Source: Oligoflexia bacterium
GTDB lineage: Bacteria; Bdellovibrionota; UBA1018
NCBI GenBank assembly: GCA_014376785.1
Contig: JACMQW010000082.1
Location: 3,499-67,498, forward strand
Direction of reading: 5' to 3'
DNA: 64,000 bases
Of the stretch, positions 32,847 through 42,546 are shown piece after piece. How positions within the stretch are numbered: the stretch's first letter is position 1; each line of letters starts with the position of its first letter. The notes under the pieces are model-generated. The model saw only the letters and a list, made by a program, of their open reading frames with translations, searched no databases and was not told where the DNA came from. Both the position numbers and the translations under genes were made by a program.

Positions 32847-33194
32847 ATGAGCATAAAAGGTTTTCGAGATGAGGCCCATTACCGCGAGACCATGGCGGTC
32901 ACTTTAGGTCGGATTGAGAAAGCCTTCTACGATGTCGACCCGGACGTTGCGGAGTGCAATGTGCAGTTCGGAGCGCTCACTATTCTTTTTCCAGACGGCA
33001 GCCGTTGCATCCTCTCCTCGCAGCCGTCCGTAGGCCAGCTTTGGATGGCAATCGCGTCGAAGGGAATCGCCTACCATTTCGATTACGACCCGGCCTTGGC
33101 CGAATGGAGAGATGATAAAGGGGACGGGGTGGAGCCCTTGGCTTTTTTGAAGAAGTTTATGGCCGAAAGCGCTGGCCTGAAAATTCAGTTTTAA
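32847..33194 (+). CDS. cyaY: frataxin-like iron donor
   Basis: GALTILF.DG..ILSSQP...QLWMA....YHFD. Confidence 0.85.
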   Translation: MSIKGFRDEAHYRETMAVTLGRIEKAFYDVDPDVAECNVQFGALTILFPDGSRCILSSQPSVGQLWMAIASKGIAYHFDYDPALAEWRDDKGDGVEPLAFLKKFMAESAGLKIQF

Positions 33195-33266
33195 CCCTAA
33201 ACCTCAGCCTTGTTTACCCGTCCGCTTTCAGGGAAAATAAAATCCGAAACCTTACAGGAGAGTCTT

Positions 33267-33524
33267 ATGTCACCTCAAGTTACTGTTTATACGATGGATC
33301 ACTGTCCCTACTGCGAAAGAGCGAAAAGCCTGCTGAAACAACGAGGTGTGGCCTACTCGGAAGTAAAGCTCCCGATGGACGACGACGCAGCTTGGGCAAA
33401 TCTCGAAAAAAAGACCGGGATGAAAACGATGCCGCAAATTCTGAACGGTGAGAAAGTGATCGGTGGCTACAACGACCTCGCCGCCATTGATCAAAAAGAC
33501 CAACTCGCCAGCTTGAAGGCGTAA
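33267..33524 (+). CDS. grxC: dithiol glutaredoxin
   Basis: CPYC, TMPQI, IGGY; AGGAG RBS before ATG 33267. Confidence 0.9.
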   Translation: MSPQVTVYTMDHCPYCERAKSLLKQRGVAYSEVKLPMDDDAAWANLEKKTGMKTMPQILNGEKVIGGYNDLAAIDQKDQLASLKA

Positions 33525-33811: not shown

Positions 33812-34475
33812 ATGTCGCTCACTCTCTATTTTCATCCGCTGGCTTCGTATTGTTGGAAACCGTTGATTGCACTTTACGAAAACGACACGAACTTCACTCC
33901 CATCATCGTCAATCTCGGAGATGAGACGTCTCGGATCGATTTTCTAAAAATTTGGCCGATGGGCGAGTTCCCGGTCCTTCGTGACGAAGGACGCTCCCGA
34001 ACTATTCCGGGATCATCTGCGATCGTCGAATACCTCCGGGTTTATTCGAAGGGTGGAGTCCCGATGATTCCCGAGGATTCCCGAGGATTTAGATTTGGCA
34101 CTCGAAGTGCGTCGAATGGACGGATTCATGGACAGTTACATCCAAACACCGATGCAAAAGATCGTCGGAGATTGTTTAAGGTCAGACGGAGAGAAAGATC
34201 CCACCGGAGTGACAGAAGCTCGCCAGACTCTGCAAACGGCTTACGACATCTTGGAAAAAAGCGGGGTAGGCAAGACATGGGCGGCGGGTGACCATTTTTC
34301 GATGGCGGATTGCTCTGCCGCTCCCGCTCTGTTCTATGCGAATAAAGTCGCGCCCTTCAACAACACTCATCCAAATTTGGCTCGCTACCTTGAGAGGCTC
34401 ACGCAGCGGCCCTCGTTTGCGCGAGTGCTAGAAGAAGCGAAGCCTTACTTCCACTTCTTCCCTTATAAAAACTAA
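33812..34475 (+). pseudogene. glutathione S-transferase, frameshifted by a 10-bp duplication
   Basis: N-half (LYFHPLASYCWK, FPVL, SSAIVEYL) and C-half (FSMADC, ARYLERL..RPSFARV) are in different frames; removing one GATTCCCGAG copy (34066-34085) joins them as PMIPEDLDLALEVRR. Confidence 0.9.
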
Positions 34476-34605: not shown

Positions 34606-34974
34606 TCACCTTTTCAGTCTCAGCCGAATCGGACCGCGAAACTTGGACGGCTCGATGACTTGCCCCTTTTGTAGGATTTCGATTTTACCTTGATGAACAA
34701 GCCTGCGTGCAGCTTGCCGAACAAGTTCCATTTTTTCTGCATCCTGTTTAAAAGCGGGCGGAAGGACTTCGGACGGACAAATCGTCGCGGAATGGGCGCG
34801 CTGGGCGAGTAGGTTCAAAATTTCAGTTTCATGGCCTTCTCTAAGTGTGTTTTTGTCCCGACGGCATTTTTCGCCGCAGTACCTAACTTCATTCCAGTTC
34901 TTTTCCCATTTCTTTCGCCACGTCATCTCGCGGCCGCATAAGAGGCAGTTTTTGGACTCCGGGATGCTTTTCAT
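34606..34974 (-). CDS. DUF2256 + DUF3253 fusion protein
   Basis: C..CGR.MTWRKKW..NW..VRYC...CR followed by TICPSEV..VRQAARRL...G.I...QKG...RGPIR. Confidence 0.85.
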   Translation of the reverse strand: MKSIPESKNCLLCGREMTWRKKWEKNWNEVRYCGEKCRRDKNTLREGHETEILNLLAQRAHSATICPSEVLPPAFKQDAEKMELVRQAARRLVHQGKIEILQKGQVIEPSKFRGPIRLRLKR

Positions 34975-35051: not shown

Positions 35052-35951
35052 TCATGGTCGAAGCAGCGTCTCACGAAGCACGCTGTGCTTACCGATGAGA
35101 TAATTTCTCTTTTCTGGATTTCGACCCAAACTACGCAGCCGGTACCAGGGCACATTCGGGTAAAGGTGATGAGTCAGGTGGCGATCTGAGTTGTACGGGT
35201 AGATGAAAAATCGCGTGATTTTGCCAGTTTCAAGATCGGAGGTGAATTCATCGATTTTCCCCGAACGTGCGCGGTGTTCTCCATAGCCCTGCAGTTTCAG
35301 AAAGAAGAAAAGGAAGGTCACCTGCGGTAAAATCCAATACCAAAGGAAGATGCGACCTCCATGGGGCATCGTGAGTAAGATTCCTACCCCTATGGCGACT
35401 ACTGCGATGGAGGTCCATTCGCCTTTCGAAATCTGGGGCAACCGTCTCTCCTGGATCTCGCGCGCCAAATAGAGTTGGTAAGAAAAGAAAAACTGGAAAA
35501 AGTGGTAACCGCACAAATCCAAGAAAATAATTTTCAGTAATTTTTCGAGGGGGAGAGGTTCAAATCGATATCCTTGGTCTTCGTAAAAGGAGACCTCAGG
35601 ATCGAGTTTTGGGTCCTTTAAGTGCCGATGGTGCTGAAAATGGAAATAACGGTACTGGGACACGAGCCCGAAAAAAGGCACTCCGCAGAAGATGTTGGTT
35701 GCGATGTCGTTCAAACGTTTTTTCGGAACGAGTTGGTAGTGAGCTCCTTCGTGAAAGAGAATTTGGAGGTGATTCTGTAGGGCCGCTACAAAAGGTAAAC
35801 AAGCGAAACGAAAGGTCCATGAATCCGAAGTCTCTCCCACGAGTGCAAGCGTGAGCATTCCGAAATAGGGACTAATCAACGCCGCAAGCGAGACCCACAC
35901 GTTCTGATTTCGTCTCAGAAGCTGAGGATGGAGGGGTTGCATGAGAATCAT
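35052..35951 (-). CDS. membrane fatty-acid desaturase/hydroxylase family protein
   Basis: His boxes HEGAH, HFQHH, HLTHH plus GEH; TM segments; P.VPWYRL. Confidence 0.88.
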   Translation of the reverse strand: MILMQPLHPQLLRRNQNVWVSLAALISPYFGMLTLALVGETSDSWTFRFACLPFVAALQNHLQILFHEGAHYQLVPKKRLNDIATNIFCGVPFFGLVSQYRYFHFQHHRHLKDPKLDPEVSFYEDQGYRFEPLPLEKLLKIIFLDLCGYHFFQFFFSYQLYLAREIQERRLPQISKGEWTSIAVVAIGVGILLTMPHGGRIFLWYWILPQVTFLFFFLKLQGYGEHRARSGKIDEFTSDLETGKITRFFIYPYNSDRHLTHHLYPNVPWYRLRSLGRNPEKRNYLIGKHSVLRETLLRP

Positions 35952-36579
35952 CCTTCTTTTTAAAGTCGTAAAAAAATCGATCGTCGTTCGAACTCATCCA
36001 GTCGCCTGTTTCAGCATGAAACTTCTGACGATTGATTCTGTAATCGGGCCGCCCCTCGATCTGCTTCGTCACGAAGGCCACTTCTTCCCAGATGATTTTG
36101 TTATTCGGATAGGCGCCGTAGCAGCCATTTGCTAACTTCACGAAGTGCTGGCATTTGTGATCTTCCGGAGATTCGACGAAGGTCGTGTTCAAATATCCGG
36201 GATCGGGATGGCAGAAGTCGACGGTGAATAGGTATTCGCATTTCTCCCAGTGCCCATCCCGCATGAAGACGCGACCGTTCAACTCTTTTAAGAAATCGTA
36301 TTCAATCACGGCAATGTGATAGCCGAGCTGGTCCCAGGTTTGGAGGTTTTCGAGTGGGACCTCTTCTGCGTCCTTCCTCCAAACAAAGGCGGAAAGCGGC
36401 AGTCGATAGAAGACGGCTCCCGTTGAAAGAAAGGCGTGCAGTCCAAGCGCTCGGCCTTTGATGCTTGAAATCGCGAAAAGATGGCATTCCTCGATCTCGC
36501 CGTGGTGGGCTTCGAGGTTGTAGAGGTATTCCCTCTTTAGGAAGCATTTGAGGGGCCGAATATTGTGATTGAGCAGCAT
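35872..36579 (-). CDS. hypothetical protein resembling a conserved uncharacterised phage protein
   Basis: LN.NI.P..C...REYLY....HHGE, GAVFYRLP.SAF, YLFTVD..HP, HKC.H, PNN.I.W, DRFFY; GGAG RBS. Similarity is recalled, not searched. Confidence 0.75.
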   Translation of the reverse strand: MLLNHNIRPLKCFLKREYLYNLEAHHGEIEECHLFAISSIKGRALGLHAFLSTGAVFYRLPLSAFVWRKDAEEVPLENLQTWDQLGYHIAVIEYDFLKELNGRVFMRDGHWEKCEYLFTVDFCHPDPGYLNTTFVESPEDHKCQHFVKLANGCYGAYPNNKIIWEEVAFVTKQIEGRPDYRINRQKFHAETGDWMSSNDDRFFYDFKKKDDSHATPPSSASETKSERVGLACGVD

Positions 36580-36631
36580 TTACTTCTTCTCCGTGCCGCG
36601 AACTTAGACCTCCCATCTCGACTTCGATAAT

Positions 36632-36651
36632 TCATAGATTTCATGTTATGA
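36632..36651. promoter_or_regulatory. possible LysR operator in the divergent promoter region
   Basis: TCATA-N10-TATGA inverted repeat; spacing is not the exact T-N11-A consensus. Confidence 0.35.
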
Positions 36652-36660
36652 GCATTTTTA

Positions 36661-37524
36661 ATGAGTTTACTAGGACCCGGCTTGGAAGCATTTATAGCAA
36701 TCGCAAAGTTGAAGACCGTTCATGCCGCCGCTAAAGAGCTGAGAATCTCTCAAACGGGCGTGACCCAGCGAATTCGTTCACTCGAGAAGCAATTGCAGGC
36801 GACCTTATTCACGCGGTCCAGACGAGGAATGCTCCTCAGTACCGAGGGGGACGCGCTCTACCGATACTGCCTCTCCGCACGCGAACTTGAAGGAGCCGCG
36901 CTCGCCCAAATACAAGGTGCGGGGAAACAAGCCATTGTAGAAGTTTGCATCACGGGGCCAACTTCGGCTCTCCGGACGAGGGTCTTGCCGGTGTGTGCTC
37001 GGGTGTCTCAGGCAAATCCGAAGACCCTCTTTCGATTCAAATTCTCAGATAGTGAATTCTGGATAGAAGACCTTCGCACAGGGGTCGCCCAGATTGCGCT
37101 GGTGCCACCTGAATTTGTTGGGAAGGAATTGCAAAGCAAGCTCTTAAAGCCCGAAGAGTATGTGATGGTCGGTCCGAAGAGCTGGAAGAAAAGGTCCTTC
37201 ACGGAAGTGGTGCAATCGGAAAGAATCATCGATTTCGAACCGTCGGATCGAACTTCATTTCGTTACCTGGAGCACTTTGGCTTGCTTGAACAGGCTAGAC
37301 CGGAGCGGCATTTCGCAAACAATACGGAAGCCGTTGCCAGCCTGATCGAATCGGGGATGGGTTATGGAGTTTTAACCCACGAGTTTGCTCAGAGATTTCT
37401 CGAGCGCTGCGAAATCGTTCTCTTGAACCAAGGGCGAGTGTACGCTCAACCCCTCGCACTTGCATGGTACCCGAGGCCCGAGACGAAAGGGTATTGGACC
37501 GAGATCATCCGATCGATTCGATAA
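36661..37524 (+). CDS. LysR-family transcriptional regulator
   Basis: N-terminal HTH (AAAKELRISQTGVTQRIRSLE...LF.R); 287 aa. Confidence 0.92.
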   Translation: MSLLGPGLEAFIAIAKLKTVHAAAKELRISQTGVTQRIRSLEKQLQATLFTRSRRGMLLSTEGDALYRYCLSARELEGAALAQIQGAGKQAIVEVCITGPTSALRTRVLPVCARVSQANPKTLFRFKFSDSEFWIEDLRTGVAQIALVPPEFVGKELQSKLLKPEEYVMVGPKSWKKRSFTEVVQSERIIDFEPSDRTSFRYLEHFGLLEQARPERHFANNTEAVASLIESGMGYGVLTHEFAQRFLERCEIVLLNQGRVYAQPLALAWYPRPETKGYWTEIIRSIR

Positions 37525-37721: not shown

Positions 37722-39713
37722 ATGGTCACCTCCGCATTTGGATTGAGTCATTCCGATAGATTTCTCAACAAAGATCAGGAAAACGATTTTCTGCGCTCCG
37801 AAAATATTCGCTTGAGAGAAAAACTGCAGGAAACTTCCTCACTTCTTCAAGTTCATCCTCTCTTTTTCGCGAACGTGTCACTCGACGGAGAAATTCAAAA
37901 CGTGAGCAGCACGAGCATGATCATGCTGGGGTGTGAGTTTGATCGAGCAATCGGAAACCTTGTTTGGGATATTAAAAATTTTTCGAAATTTTCTGAAACT
38001 AGAAAATGGCTGATGAACGCCGTAAAGTTAGCAGCGAGCGGTCATGCATCCCGTGAGAAAGTTCTCGTAGAGCCCGCACTGAATTCAGATGAAAGCTCTC
38101 ACCTCGTTTCGTTGCACGTGCACCCGATTCGGAAAAGAAAATTAGGAATCACAAAAATTTCGATCACTGCCATAGATTTGAGCGATTCGCATGGTCTTTC
38201 AGACTCCTCCAAAATGGAGCAGGAGAGACTTGCGCGGGTGATTGATGTAGCGCAGTTAGGCTACTACGAATGGGATCTTAAGACGAATGCCGCTGTTTTA
38301 AGCGATCAGCTGAAAAATAAATGGACCCTTGAAAAAACTCTCGATGTTTCTGCTCTTTTTTTGAAAATTCATCCGGACGACCGCAGTGCCGTGATTTCTC
38401 GGATGGAGTCAGCGATTCGGCAGCACCGGTCTTATCATTCAGAATTCCGAGTCATTCTCTCTGATGAAAAAGAGTCCTGGATCGAGGCGGCCGGCGTCGC
38501 ATTCTATTCGGAAAGGGGTGAGCCTCTCTGTTTTTTTGGAACCACTCTGGATATCACGGACCGTAAATTGAGAGAAATGAGAATTGAAAAGAACGAGGAG
38601 TCTTTGAAAAAGGCTTTGGGAGTTTCGAGAGTGGGTTTTTTTGATTGGGATCTGCACCGAGACCAGACGGAGTTCAGCGAAAGGATGCGTCTAGATTGGG
38701 ATCTTCCGGAACAAGCCACGATGTCGCAAGCCCTGGAACGAATCCATCCAGAAGATCTGGTTCGTGTCCGCGAGTGCGTCCGCTATGCGTTGGAACATCA
38801 CGTTTGTTATTCAATGGAATACCGGGTGTATCACCGCGACGGGAAAGAAATTTGGATCGAGGCGCAAGGGGAAGCTCAGTATGATTCTTTCGGGAATGCG
38901 CTGCGCATGTTGGGAACCTCGGTGGATGTCACAGAAAGGAAATGTCTCGAGCTGGGAAAGCAGGCGATCATTAATGATCTCACTGAGACCAAATCCAAGC
39001 TCGAGCAATCTGAAAAAAAATTCAGTTTGGAAAGAATCCTTCGTGAGCGATTTGTTGTGTCGCTTTCCCATGATTTAAGGACTCCGCTAACGGCGGCCCG
39101 GTACGGCGTGTCGATGCTGACGAGTGGAAAGGAAAGCCCTGAACGAAGGGAGAAAGCGCTTCGCATCATTCGAGAGAATATTTTACGAGCCGATCGCATG
39201 ATCGAAGATCTTCTGGACGCGAATCGAATTAAAGCGGGTGAGAAGATCCCGATGCTCCTAGAGCCTTGTCATTTGAATAAAGTCGTTGCGGAGGTTCTGG
39301 CTGTTCTAAATTTCATTCATGGAAATCGATTTTCCCTGAAATGCTTAGATGAGATCCACGGTCAGGTTAGCTGTGAAGGCTTCCGCAGAATTTTAGAGAA
39401 CCTCTGTAACAACGCGGTTAAATACGGAGGGAAGGAGCGTCCGATTCTCATTGAGCTCTCGAAGTCGAATGAAGAGATTATTCTTTGTGTTCATAACGAA
39501 GGAAATCCTATCCCTGTTTCGGATCAGTCCACATTGTTCGATGCTTTTCGTCGGCTTCCAGGAATTGACCAGCAAGAACAGAAGGGTTGGGGGATTGGTT
39601 TGACGATCACTAAAGGTTTTGCTGAAGCGATGAATGGGACTGTGAAAATGACTAGTTCACCGGAAACAGGAACGGACTTCACCGTGCATCTGCCTTTAGT
39701 AGAGGTTACTTGA
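37722..39713 (+). CDS. multi-PAS sensor histidine kinase
   Basis: PAS/PAC repeats (IHPDD, IHPED), SHDLRTPL, NL..NAVKY, GWGIGL. Confidence 0.92.
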   Translation: MVTSAFGLSHSDRFLNKDQENDFLRSENIRLREKLQETSSLLQVHPLFFANVSLDGEIQNVSSTSMIMLGCEFDRAIGNLVWDIKNFSKFSETRKWLMNAVKLAASGHASREKVLVEPALNSDESSHLVSLHVHPIRKRKLGITKISITAIDLSDSHGLSDSSKMEQERLARVIDVAQLGYYEWDLKTNAAVLSDQLKNKWTLEKTLDVSALFLKIHPDDRSAVISRMESAIRQHRSYHSEFRVILSDEKESWIEAAGVAFYSERGEPLCFFGTTLDITDRKLREMRIEKNEESLKKALGVSRVGFFDWDLHRDQTEFSERMRLDWDLPEQATMSQALERIHPEDLVRVRECVRYALEHHVCYSMEYRVYHRDGKEIWIEAQGEAQYDSFGNALRMLGTSVDVTERKCLELGKQAIINDLTETKSKLEQSEKKFSLERILRERFVVSLSHDLRTPLTAARYGVSMLTSGKESPERREKALRIIRENILRADRMIEDLLDANRIKAGEKIPMLLEPCHLNKVVAEVLAVLNFIHGNRFSLKCLDEIHGQVSCEGFRRILENLCNNAVKYGGKERPILIELSKSNEEIILCVHNEGNPIPVSDQSTLFDAFRRLPGIDQQEQKGWGIGLTITKGFAEAMNGTVKMTSSPETGTDFTVHLPLVEVT

Positions 39714-39824
39714 GCATTGCCGTCAAAGGTTTGGCATCTGAGCTTTCAATAAATATCGCGTTCCGTCGAAGCTTGTAGTGGTAAACTGGTATTGACACTC
39801 TCAATGACAGTCGGGGAAATTTCC

Positions 39825-40211
39825 GTGCAACACCTTTTAATCGTAGAAGATTCGATTGAATTCCAAAAAATTATTTCAAGGGTACTAAACGACTACGAAC
39901 TCACTTCCGCCTTAAGCGCTGAAGAGGCATGGACCCAATTGGGCACTGCAAAGTTCGCCCTTGTTCTGTTGGATATCTCACTGCCGGGTAAAGACGGCTA
40001 TTCTCTTTTGGCAGATATGCAGGCGTCCGAACTTTTTAGAAATATCCCGGTGATTTGTTTAACGGGAAAAGTCGCGACTTCCGACCGAGTAAATGCATTT
40101 CGGCTCGGCGCAGATGATTTCATCGAAAAGCCTTTCGATCATCAGGAACTGAAAGTGCGGGTTGCCGCGAAACTAGCGAAGTCGCTTTCGCGGACTGCTC
40201 ATGACGGATGA
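39825..40211 (+). CDS. single-domain response regulator
   Basis: LIVEDS, LLDISLPGKDG, GADDFIEKPF; probable GTG start. Confidence 0.9.
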   Translation: MQHLLIVEDSIEFQKIISRVLNDYELTSALSAEEAWTQLGTAKFALVLLDISLPGKDGYSLLADMQASELFRNIPVICLTGKVATSDRVNAFRLGADDFIEKPFDHQELKVRVAAKLAKSLSRTAHDG

Positions 40212-42546
40212 TTTAGCGATTTTTTTCGAGGTGTCGCAGCACCTCCTCTGCATAGCGGGAGCAGATGGTTTTCTGAAGCGAGTGAATCCATCCTTTGAAA
40301 GAGTCTTGGGATTTTCAGCGACAGAACTCCTAGCTCGGCCCTATATGGATTTCGTTCTCCCCGAGGATCGGGCAGGAACGCTTGCACACGCCGAAGGGGT
40401 TCCCAGCGAACGTGGAAACTCCGAATTTGAAAACAGATACGTTTGTAAAGACGGCTCTATTCGCCATTTATCTTGGCGGACGACCACCGTGGATGATCGC
40501 ATTCTTTGCATCGCACACGACGTGACAGACGAGAGAGAAAAAGAAAAAAAGACGAAGCAGCTGAATGACGAAGCACTTCGTGAAGCAAAAGAAAGTTTCA
40601 GGCACCTTGCCGAAGCCATGCCCCAAATGGTCTGGAAAACGGACGCAGCTGGGAATCAACTGTACTCGAACGCAAGGTGGAACGAATACACCGGGTCCAA
40701 TCAGAGCGATGAGCAGGATTCGAAATTATGGGAGAACGTCGTCCACCCCGATGATTTCCAAAATTCAATCACGAATTGGACGAGGTCGCTGATATCCGGA
40801 GACAGCTTCGAAATGCAATATAGGCTGCGTAGGGCGATCGATGGCATCTATCGCTGGCACCTTGCGCGCGCGGTTCCCATAAAGGATAGCAATGGCACCA
40901 TCGTTAAATGGTTCGGAACTTTAACCGACATTGATGAGCAGAAACGTTCCGAAGAGGAACTGAGAATAAGTTTAGAAGAATTACGTCGTTCTTCACTGGA
41001 AAAGGTCGAGATACTCAAGCGCGAGAAAGCGGCGCTTGAATCTTCCGATTTAAAATCGGAATTCGTCGCTACGATGAGCCACGAAATTCGGACTCCTTTG
41101 AGTGCCATCATTGGAATGACTCAGGTGTTATTAAAGGGTGAATTAGACGAAGAGCAGGCCGACATCGCAAAGACGATTCTCTTTTCTGCCGAATCGCTTT
41201 CAGGAATCGTGAATGAAATTCTTGATTTCTCTAAAATTGAGTCGGGAAAGATGCCATTAGAAAAAGTTGATTTCGATTTGAAGACTATTCTTTTCGGGGT
41301 GGTTAATGCATCACGATTTGGCGCTGCGGAAAAAGGCATCAAGCTCCAAGTGACCATTCAACCGGAATTAGATACGTGGGTGAGTGGGGATCTCGTGAAG
41401 ATCCGGCAAGTCCTTCATAATTTATTGAGTAACGCGGTGAAATTTACTTCGCAGGGTGAAGTCTGTGTTTCTTTGGAAGCACGAGGCCATTCCGAATCTC
41501 TCCAGTCCCGTATTCGATTTTTGGTAACTGATACGGGAATCGGAATCGCAACCGAGGAGGTTTCTCGCCTTTTCGAACCGTTTGTTCAGGCGGATGCGTC
41601 GATTGCTCGCCGCTTCGGGGGAACGGGCTTAGGACTTTCAATTTGTAAGCGGCTCATTGAGTTGATGGGCGGCGAAATCGGAGTCGAAAGTATACCAGGC
41701 AAAGGATCTCAGTTCTGGTTTGAACTCTCTCTTTCGAAAAGAACAGAAATCACCCAGCATTTTAACTTCGATAGGCCTTCAGAGGGCTCTATCACGGGCA
41801 GAATCCTCGTCGCTGAAGACCACCCGATGAACCAGAAAGTGATTCGGTATCTCTTAAGAAACCTCGGACTTCAGATTGATCTGGTGGCTTCGGGGCGGGA
41901 AGCGGTACTTGCAAATGCGCTGCACCGCTACGACCTCATTCTCATGGACTGTCACATGCCGGACATGGACGGGTATGAAGCGACTCGTGCCATCCGTGCC
42001 CAACCTGGAGATTGCGCGCGCGTTCCGATTTACGCGCTCACCGCAGACGTCCTCCAAAATACTCCCCAGCGGTGCCGTGAGGTCGGAATGAATGGGTATT
42101 TTCAAAAGCCCATCCAAAGCGAAAGACTTTACTCTGTGATCGCTCAGTGCTGCACGAGACCCACGCGCGATCTGATGGAAAATCAGGCTGCGGTATCACC
42201 GTTAGGAAAAGTACCGCCCGATTTCGACCCGGCGGCCCTTCGGGTTTTGGAAAATCTGAATGCCGAGGGTCAGCCTGATATCGTCAGGGAGCTCGTGAAT
42301 GGATTTCACCGCGACACTCCTGCTCATCTCGCGCGGATTTTGGATGCGATAGAACGCCAAGACCGTTTTGCATTGGAACAAGAGGCGCACTCTTTGAAGT
42401 CAGTTTCGGCAGTGCTCGGCGCGATGAATGTTTCAAGGCTTTGTGGACTGCTTGAATTAGAAGCGCAGAGAGAAAGTTCGGTTTGTGCAAAAATGGTCCT
42501 TTCCGAGCTTCATGATTCGTATATTCGTTACTTGGATGAGACCTGA
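40201..42546 (+). CDS. hybrid histidine kinase PAS-PAS-HisKA-HATPase-REC-Hpt
   Basis: MSHEIRTPL, NAVKFT, GGTGLGL, LMDCHMP, AHSLKS. Confidence 0.93.
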   Translation: MTDDLAIFFEVSQHLLCIAGADGFLKRVNPSFERVLGFSATELLARPYMDFVLPEDRAGTLAHAEGVPSERGNSEFENRYVCKDGSIRHLSWRTTTVDDRILCIAHDVTDEREKEKKTKQLNDEALREAKESFRHLAEAMPQMVWKTDAAGNQLYSNARWNEYTGSNQSDEQDSKLWENVVHPDDFQNSITNWTRSLISGDSFEMQYRLRRAIDGIYRWHLARAVPIKDSNGTIVKWFGTLTDIDEQKRSEEELRISLEELRRSSLEKVEILKREKAALESSDLKSEFVATMSHEIRTPLSAIIGMTQVLLKGELDEEQADIAKTILFSAESLSGIVNEILDFSKIESGKMPLEKVDFDLKTILFGVVNASRFGAAEKGIKLQVTIQPELDTWVSGDLVKIRQVLHNLLSNAVKFTSQGEVCVSLEARGHSESLQSRIRFLVTDTGIGIATEEVSRLFEPFVQADASIARRFGGTGLGLSICKRLIELMGGEIGVESIPGKGSQFWFELSLSKRTEITQHFNFDRPSEGSITGRILVAEDHPMNQKVIRYLLRNLGLQIDLVASGREAVLANALHRYDLILMDCHMPDMDGYEATRAIRAQPGDCARVPIYALTADVLQNTPQRCREVGMNGYFQKPIQSERLYSVIAQCCTRPTRDLMENQAAVSPLGKVPPDFDPAALRVLENLNAEGQPDIVRELVNGFHRDTPAHLARILDAIERQDRFALEQEAHSLKSVSAVLGAMNVSRLCGLLELEAQRESSVCAKMVLSELHDSYIRYLDET

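Follow-up and report, generated by a model that had tools for sequence, protein, structure and literature searches.

The 64,000-nucleotide (nt) stretch of DNA analysed here, called the window, is part of contig JACMQW010000082.1 (assembly GCA_014376785.1) of an Oligoflexia bacterium from the Bdellovibrionota, and it carries a cassette of three genes that we name X235, DES and lysR; all positions given for it are positions in the window. X235 (35872-36579, minus strand) is an open reading frame (ORF) of 235 amino acids whose product is predicted to be cytoplasmic and to contain two beta-barrels, and it is a Bdellovibrionota-clade member of the phrog_3704 family, which is also carried by many phages. 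DES (35052-35951, minus strand) encodes 299 amino acids, or 296 from the ATG at 35942, of a predicted integral-membrane non-heme di-iron oxygenase of the FA_desaturase superfamily, on its GntB-like branch. Divergent from X235 lies lysR (36661-37524, plus strand), which encodes a LysR-type transcriptional regulator of 287 amino acids, and the two are separated by a control region of 81 nt (36580-36660) with a GC content of 0.395. An initial annotation, made from the sequence alone, had described the same three ORFs with an 81-bp divergent gap and an overlap between the first two, and we find all of them where it placed them.

The overlap of X235 and DES (35872-35951, minus strand) was examined in terms of both starts. 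The start of X235 is marked by the peptide MLLNHNI, common to close homologues, and by a GGAG 9-12 nt upstream of the ATG. Conservation is confined to residues 1-212 of the protein; the tail formed by residues 213-235 is not conserved and is encoded across the start of DES, which lies in the +1 frame relative to X235. DES itself has been called elsewhere from an internal GTG, giving 282 amino acids (P0270); the N-terminal peptide LLRRNQNVW of DES is encoded upstream of that GTG and aligns with the homologue peptide LKRNEN.W. Since this N-terminal peptide is conserved, DES starts at the ATG at 35951 or 35942, and the overlap, of 80 nt or of 71 nt from the second ATG, is real. This is the arrangement expected for translational coupling. 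A programmed frameshift fusing X235 to DES was ruled out, because the A-rich stretch where the two genes meet is of a kind suited to slippage into the -1 frame, and DES is in the +1 frame.

The regulator has both Pfam domains of its class above the cut-offs (HTH_1, E 5.3e-16; LysR_substrate, E 5.9e-15). Its best NCBIfam matches are below their cut-offs, with 99.8 bits for LysR_Sec_metab and 94 bits for ArgP/LysG; as the cut-off of the latter (NF002964) is 197 bits, the protein is not assigned to the ArgP/LysG subfamily. The palindrome that the initial annotation saw in the divergent gap is there in a weaker form than it stated: a repeat search at seed 6 found no inverted repeat in the control region, and a direct scan found the imperfect dyad TCATA-N10-TATGA at about 36632-36651, some 10 nt from the lysR start codon. 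Three related loci (L012, L013 and L017 in our numbering) have the dyad equally far from the start of lysR, so that it is kept in 4/4 alignable control regions, including that of the window. Its position and form are those expected for a LysR-type operator, and we regard it as a candidate operator of this type. Promoter and terminator scans gave counts below shuffle expectation.

The cassette is not peculiar to the source genome. A family scan, alignment-based and with one genome per species, returned 69 loci, six of which (L012-L017) form with the window a Bdellovibrionota clade of X genes, X being used here for any member of the family. With genes in the related loci called as simple ORF picks, DES directly follows X in 7/7 loci of this clade, always overlapping it in the +1 frame (by 23-89 nt, according to which start is taken), and 6/7 also have a LysR-family gene in divergent orientation. 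The regulators of L012, L013 and L017 are orthologues with 53-60% identity to that of the window, those of L015 and L016 are more distant and were recognised by Pfam, and L014 has an unassigned ORF of 196 amino acids in the lysR position. In L013 (3929-5000) the match to LysR is broken into residues 1-62 and residues 104-287, which may mean that this regulator is disrupted, and an additional ORF of 89 amino acids separates lysR from X.

The genes flanking the cassette differ in every locus of the clade (radical SAM, ScpB, TGT, an IS66 gene and others), which indicates that the three genes travel as a unit. Sequence conservation within the clade is much stronger for X than for its companions, with 74-83% identity to the window gene compared to 35-54% for DES and the values given above for LysR. 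X occurs in 4/61 related genomes, and DES matches above 280 bits are found in exactly those four, the next best match having 195 bits. The cassette is rare and patchy in the phylum, where X was found in 6/401 genomes, and one of these six copies, at 30% identity, has neither DES nor LysR within 1.5 kb. Scans with single proteins gave two loci in genome contigs and, in metagenome contigs, 13 distant relatives with no further cassette. The clade also has roughly 30 metagenomic members (P0002-P0032), and for four of these the longest contig is exactly as long (10251, 1188996, 8372 and 2299) as that of a DES homologue, a hint of additional linked pairs. A complex prediction for X235 (residues 1-212) and DES scored 0.00 against a mark of 0.32, which speaks neither for nor against binding. 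The regulated, cellular setting put forward by the initial annotation is therefore real and conserved within the clade, and the desaturase linkage extends beyond a single genome.

To describe the X family we compared X235 with profile, phage and structure databases. Residues 1-212 match positions 2-217 of the 223 in the phrog_3704 profile (E 2.6e-62, 211 bits), and no match was found for X235 in Pfam or NCBIfam. A tblastn search with X235 gave 114 phage records, including pelagiphages and many cyanophages, with 35-40% identity among the matches listed; sorted by how the organism name begins, they are Synechococcus (67), Prochlorococcus (16), Cyanophage (14), Pelagibacter (6), Flavobacterium (4) and others (7). 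The end-to-end phage homology that had been proposed is thus confirmed, and all the motifs named in support of it are present on conserved columns. The family is large, with 1,275 clusters at E<=0.001 in a profile search of 1.84 billion representatives. By sequence, X235 had no match in the Protein Data Bank (PDB) at E<=1, and the family profile (A1) gave only alpha-mannosidase II with an E value of 0.35.

X235 and the phage-type sequences share 35 invariant columns. The positions kept family-wide are G54, P61, W82, Y116, T119, D121, K142, H145 (102/120 aligned members), G152, P158-N159-N160, E190 and Y204, the most conserved polar residues being K142, D121, H145, N159, N160 and E190. The initial annotation had stressed conserved histidines and cysteines as a sign of metal binding; these are not kept across the family (C143 in 70/120, C32 in 49/120, H48 in 64/120 and H124 in 34/120). 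Such a set of residues suggests a specific pocket of polar and aromatic character and not a site for a cluster. No fused form longer than 412 amino acids was scored, which is weak evidence, and Pfam searches of 18 longer family members gave only a weak ankyrin match and a LAGLIDADG insertion. The latter is in P0163 (585 amino acids), where an intein-like insertion with a LAGLIDADG domain sits between the LQLWD and CFSY motifs, in the region of W82-Y87 of X235. The nearest named clusters in the ESM Atlas were papain-like acyl-transfer or hydrolase families (IcsB_M, Peptidase_C97, TseH and CLN5; 0.89-0.91, with only 109-130 shared features). We rejected this kinship because the fold searches list no such folds and the candidate residue, Cys143, is absent from 50/120 members.

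A first AlphaFold2 model of X235, built with 30 sequences, was poor (predicted local distance difference test, pLDDT, 67.8) and was replaced by a confident model built with 120 sequences (pLDDT 90.9, predicted template modelling score 0.80). It shows two small Tudor/SH3-like beta-barrels, the first spanning about residues 4-66 and the second about 89-165, with an extended C-terminal region after them. PDB searches gave no full-length structural match among solved structures. Among viral structures (BFVD), the clear matches were only uncharacterised phage proteins of the same family, the best with a query-based template modelling score (TMq) of 0.81, E 2.4e-20 and a root-mean-square deviation of 2.0 over 218 columns. 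Resemblance to tandem Tudor or 'Royal family' and SH3-like barrels (SETDB1, 53BP1, PHF19 and the Rsc2 BAH domain) is not full-length, with template modelling (TM) scores of at most 0.33, and the Tudor-type scores fall in the range that the tool itself calls common. Nothing in these results shows a role of X235 in reading methyl-lysine or methyl-arginine. One observation of interest given the Tudor-like barrels comes from the Synechococcus phage Sf-CH1b (L083, 2133-3121), in which, as a single case, a gene for a SET-domain lysine methyltransferase overlaps the start of the family gene.

The family is not the nameless viral dark matter that the initial annotation took it for. In GenBank its members are labelled 'purM' or 'phosphoribosylaminoimidazole synthetase' and in RefSeq and PHROGs 'ferredoxin', and otherwise they are hypothetical. 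The 'purM' of T4-like cyanophages, reported in 8/16 cyanomyovirus genomes, is treated as a purine-synthesis auxiliary gene by Sullivan et al. 2010 (PMC3037559), as is the family gene in PMC6293099; for HTVC023P-type pelagiphages, PMC9599517 gives 'purM' in 45% of 82 genomes and treats it in the same way. Depth profiles of a 'purM' that may belong to the phrog_3704 family appear in PMC9983427. In the literature searched we found no published correction of the label, which is not proof that none is in print.

Both names fail on the evidence gathered here. The domains of aminoimidazole ribonucleotide (AIR) synthetase, AIRS (PF00586) and AIRS_C (PF02769), have no match in X235 at E<=0.01 nor in the 120 aligned members at E<=1, and alignment of the family profile (A2) with the source genome's own AIRS protein of 362 amino acids (PurM) gave an hhalign probability of 0.86%. 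AIRS-domain genes are already present in the source genome. The same domains were found in 0/5 phage genomes carrying the family gene, compared to 14/14 controls. As for the second name, Fer2, Fer4 and Rieske had no match among the 120 members at E<=1, no set of cysteines that could serve as cluster ligands is kept family-wide (only C143 and C32 recur), and there is no ferredoxin among the fold matches listed for the X235 model, families beyond that listing not being excluded. The model itself is all-beta, with two small barrels. X235 is neither an AIR synthetase nor an iron-sulfur ferredoxin.

DES was then placed within its superfamily. It matches FA_desaturase (PF00487) with E 9.6e-34 and 117.7 bits against a cut-off of 29.7, and its three histidine boxes (H67xxxH71, H104xxH107H108 and H258xxH261H262) are invariant in 32 homologues. 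As far as its sequence tells, DES can be called a 'fatty-acid desaturase' only in the sense of the superfamily. The best curated NCBIfam match of DES is GntB (NF041365), residues 16-274 aligning with positions 19-273 of the 308 in the profile; at 81 bits against a cut-off of 380, DES is not a GntB orthologue. GntB is likewise the best curated match for all 12 DES-type proteins compared (DES and 11 homologues or paralogues), with 50-150 bits, while the lipid desaturases DesA and DesB score no higher than 35 bits. In PMC10367076, GntB is described as a transmembrane enzyme making gamma-hydroxy-L-arginine, a description with which its designation as alpha-ketoglutarate dependent in the review PMC12371840 conflicts. 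The DES profile found nothing meaningful in the PDB, and the neighbours of DES paralogues that stand without X in related genomes were uninformative.

To explore the history of the family, we built a quick maximum-likelihood tree of 64 rows, comprising the window, 55 of the 69 loci and eight phage isolates; 14 fragmentary or split rows (L033, L034, L047, L050, L070, L071 and L073-L080) were left out. By the Shimodaira-Hasegawa-like approximate likelihood ratio test (SH-aLRT), three clades are supported: the Bdellovibrionota clade (7 rows, SH-aLRT 100), an aquatic phage clade of isolates and marine contigs (25 rows, 90) and a bacterial clade from soil and freshwater with Acidobacteriota, Planctomycetota, Nostocales and others (30 rows, 99). 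The Bdellovibrionota clade is a separate deep branch and is not nested in any sampled phage clade. Because the tree is unrooted and the branching order of the three clades is not settled by it, neither a phage nor a cellular origin can be claimed. The existence of a large bacterial clade carrying the gene on its own corrects the view of the family as viral only.

The neighbourhoods of X differ among these clades. The marine 'genome' loci are phage contigs in which primase, helicase and DNA polymerase A genes are followed by X, with capsid and terminase genes nearby; DNA polymerase A is directly upstream of X in 6/6 podovirus-type contigs scanned. X stands between nrdA and nrdB, the genes of the ribonucleotide reductase (RNR) subunits, directly in L048 (2649-6729) and with one hypothetical gene also intervening in the Pelagibacter phage HTVC008M (L082, 1-4235). 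2-Oxoglutarate (2OG)-Fe(II) oxygenases lie beside X in S-TIM4, Syn30 and L026, and phage copies of X are also found near endonuclease V. The copies of the bacterial clade stand alone on long chromosomal contigs among varied housekeeping genes. At 3/29 bacterial loci, a gene within two genes of X encodes arginine decarboxylase (in L066, where it is the next gene upstream and has the same orientation) or an agmatine deiminase-type PAD_porph protein (L049 and L053).

The surroundings of the cassette in the window are ordinary. Among the ORFs scanned from 29.6 to 42.5 kb there are none of phage-like, mobile or defence type; they include MFS, GNAT, VTT/DedA, YchJ, frataxin, glutaredoxin, glutathione S-transferase (GST), DUF2256/DUF3253, histidine kinase and response regulator genes, which agrees with the earlier observation that phage structural and integration genes are missing nearby. 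The GC content of X235, DES and lysR (0.48-0.53) is close to the window mean of 0.516. Directly downstream of DES, at 77 nt and on the same strand, lies a gene for a DUF2256 and DUF3253 protein of 122 amino acids (34606-34974, minus strand), which is not kept in the other six loci. A GST is split over two overlapping frames (33812-34475, plus strand), with GST_N in 33812-34291 and GST_C in 34095-34475, which indicates a frameshift, due either to a pseudogene or to faulty assembly. At a distance of about 2.3 kb from the cassette, a frataxin/CyaY-like gene is directly followed by a glutaredoxin gene (32847-33524, plus strand); these are iron-handling genes outside the conserved unit. Directly beyond lysR, signalling genes follow one another (37722-42546, plus strand); they encode a histidine kinase with PAS, a response regulator and a hybrid kinase with PAS and an Hpt domain, and the GC content here is the lowest of the window (0.47-0.49).

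Taken together, these data are best explained, in our tentative judgement, by a LysR-controlled two-gene oxygenase module in which X235 and DES share a function. We consider this the most likely reading because the pair is fixed and overlapping, the two genes co-occur strictly, they have a regulator of their own, and the cassette moves as a unit. The regulator would control the X235-DES operon from the shared 81-nt region with its conserved dyad, and it may sense the substrate or product of DES. DES would act as a hydroxylase or a desaturase, being a non-heme di-iron oxygenase embedded in the membrane; since GntB, the only curated characterised member of its branch, hydroxylates free L-arginine, the substrate of DES need not be an acyl lipid. 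X235 would be a soluble accessory protein whose synthesis is coupled to that of DES by the overlap of the reading frames, and is perhaps best seen as a ligand-binding or substrate-presenting subunit, whose putative pocket would be formed by K142, D121, H145, N159, N160 and E190 with the aromatic residues W82, Y116 and Y204 on the two Tudor/SH3-like barrels. Both proteins would then act in one pathway or complex.

Several results weigh against a shared function of X235 and DES. The co-occurrence of cellular X with a desaturase and LysR, named by the initial annotation as a check, holds in the Bdellovibrionota clade and fails elsewhere: no DES was linked to X in any of the 63 other genome loci, in the 13 metagenome loci or in the eight phage isolate regions viewed. 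As the link is limited to one rare clade, the core function of the family does not need DES, and the link cannot simply be transferred to the phage copies, which the initial annotation had named as candidate auxiliary metabolic genes. The stand-alone bacterial copies have no constant neighbour among 111 neighbouring proteins at 29 loci, and the phage copies, lying in DNA-replication and nucleotide modules, point to a role unrelated to membranes. Finally, GntB scores are far below the cut-off and DES paralogues without X score higher than DES (up to 150 bits), which makes the analogy with arginine hydroxylation loose.

The main rival explanation, which we judge less likely, is that X235 and DES are neighbours and not partners. 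X235 would keep a general family function, perhaps binding related to nucleic acids or nucleotides, DES would separately modify membrane lipids, and LysR would co-regulate both, for example in a stress response. The phage contexts of X, downstream of DNA polymerase A, flanked by the RNR subunit genes, near endonuclease V or beside 2OG-Fe(II) oxygenases, favour this, as do the 63/69 genome loci without DES and the intein-like LAGLIDADG insertion of P0163, inteins being typical of replication and nucleotide-metabolism proteins. Small barrels of the Tudor, KOW and SH3 types also often bind nucleic acids, and NusG, Spt5 and the PSHCP Tudor domain are among the fold matches of X235. However, the +1-frame overlap in 7/7 loci and the strict co-occurrence with DES (4/4 among 61 genomes) exceed what is usual for co-regulated genes, and the cassette stays together while its flanks change.

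A broader proposal, which we consider speculative and rather unlikely, is that the family represents a new class of small-ligand-binding proteins working with non-heme iron oxygenases. X235 would then provide, in Bdellovibrionota, the soluble half of a membrane hydroxylase made of two proteins, whose substrate would be polar, arginine-like or an amine, and the 'purM' of marine phages would feed or steer an oxygenase-linked step and not purine synthesis. Candidate steps in phages would be maintenance of the RNR di-iron centre, hydroxylation of bases or amino acids by 2OG oxygenases, and arginine or polyamine chemistry. Loose hints of an amine or guanidino theme are GntB as the nearest curated relative of DES, ArgP/LysG among the top matches of LysR, the arginine decarboxylase or agmatine deiminase genes at 3/29 loci, and the Tudor-like barrels.

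It is unlikely that X235 instead supports the metal centre of DES, chaperoning iron or relaying electrons for non-heme iron oxygenases, a role that family members would also have beside phage NrdB and 2OG-Fe(II) oxygenases. Three kinds of O2-activating iron enzyme are indeed found beside X, namely DES in 7/7 clade loci, NrdB in HTVC008M and L048, and 2OG-Fe(II) oxygenases in the three cases above, and D121, E136, H145 and E190 could bind Fe(II). The HPDPG motif of the clade weakly resembles the metal-binding N-terminus of GH38, which 6/120 members match with a best E value of 4.9e-4, but the histidine of the HPD motif, H124, is one of the poorly kept residues (34/120). The family also lacks the cysteine set for an iron-sulfur cluster and any Fer2, Fer4 or Rieske match, as described above. 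Among phages, HTVC027P and CL131 carry X without NrdB, showing that metal supply is not general for RNR, and in S-TIM4 and S-TIM5 more than 100 kb separates X from nrdB. We accordingly rejected an RNR partnership as a general rule, with NrdB in only 3/5 X-carrying phage genomes.

The remaining explanations fare worse. That X235 is a phage gene domesticated for anti-phage defence, or a decoy, would suit the abundance of the family in phages, the rare and patchy cassette among relatives and the host lineage, Bdellovibrionota, and had been offered as an alternative by the initial annotation. We consider it very unlikely: PADLOC gave 0 matches (E<=0.01) for X235, DES, LysR and the downstream gene, mobile, defence and phage genes are absent around the cassette in the window, the clade forms a deep branch of its own, nested in none of the sampled phage clades, and GC content is unremarkable. 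That the database names are right after all, making X235 either PurM, an AIR synthetase, or a ferredoxin, is supported by nothing but the labels themselves and has hardly any chance given the domain, ligand and fold results above.

The findings matter beyond this locus in two respects. Genome papers and ocean surveys have listed the phage gene among the auxiliary metabolic genes for purine synthesis, and if the family gene is not PurM, those metabolic inferences need revising. In addition, this is a large family with a confidently predicted fold that has no match among solved structures and with no assigned function, and among the contexts found here, the Bdellovibrionota cassette alone has an overlapping partner that is fixed and a regulator dedicated to it. 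It thus provides a first clue to function, and with such a partner and regulator the question can be tested in an ordinary expression host.

Finally, we compared the cassette with known systems. X235 is like the phage 'PurM' or 'ferredoxin' of phrog_3704 in sharing the full conserved length, the motifs and the predicted fold (TMq 0.81). It differs from the phage copies in belonging to a separate deep clade, in being chromosomal and putatively LysR-controlled, and in being always overlapped by the gene of a di-iron oxygenase; the phage copies have replication, RNR or 2OG-oxygenase neighbourhoods, and such an oxygenase overlap was seen in none of the eight regions viewed. DES is like GntB, the transmembrane L-arginine gamma-hydroxylase of guanitoxin biosynthesis, in being a membrane His-box enzyme of the FA_desaturase superfamily with a near-full-length match. 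Unlike in the GntB setting, no GntC-like pyridoxal phosphate enzyme or other gnt gene lies near DES. Two-component membrane di-iron oxygenases with a soluble partner include AlkB, which works with rubredoxin, and the acyl-lipid desaturases, which work with ferredoxin or cytochrome b5. Unlike rubredoxin or ferredoxin, X235 has no redox cofactor motif and is therefore unlikely to be the electron donor itself; the cassette is like the AlkB and desaturase pairs in that a membrane His-box oxygenase, DES, is encoded beside, and presumably made together with, a small soluble protein, X235.

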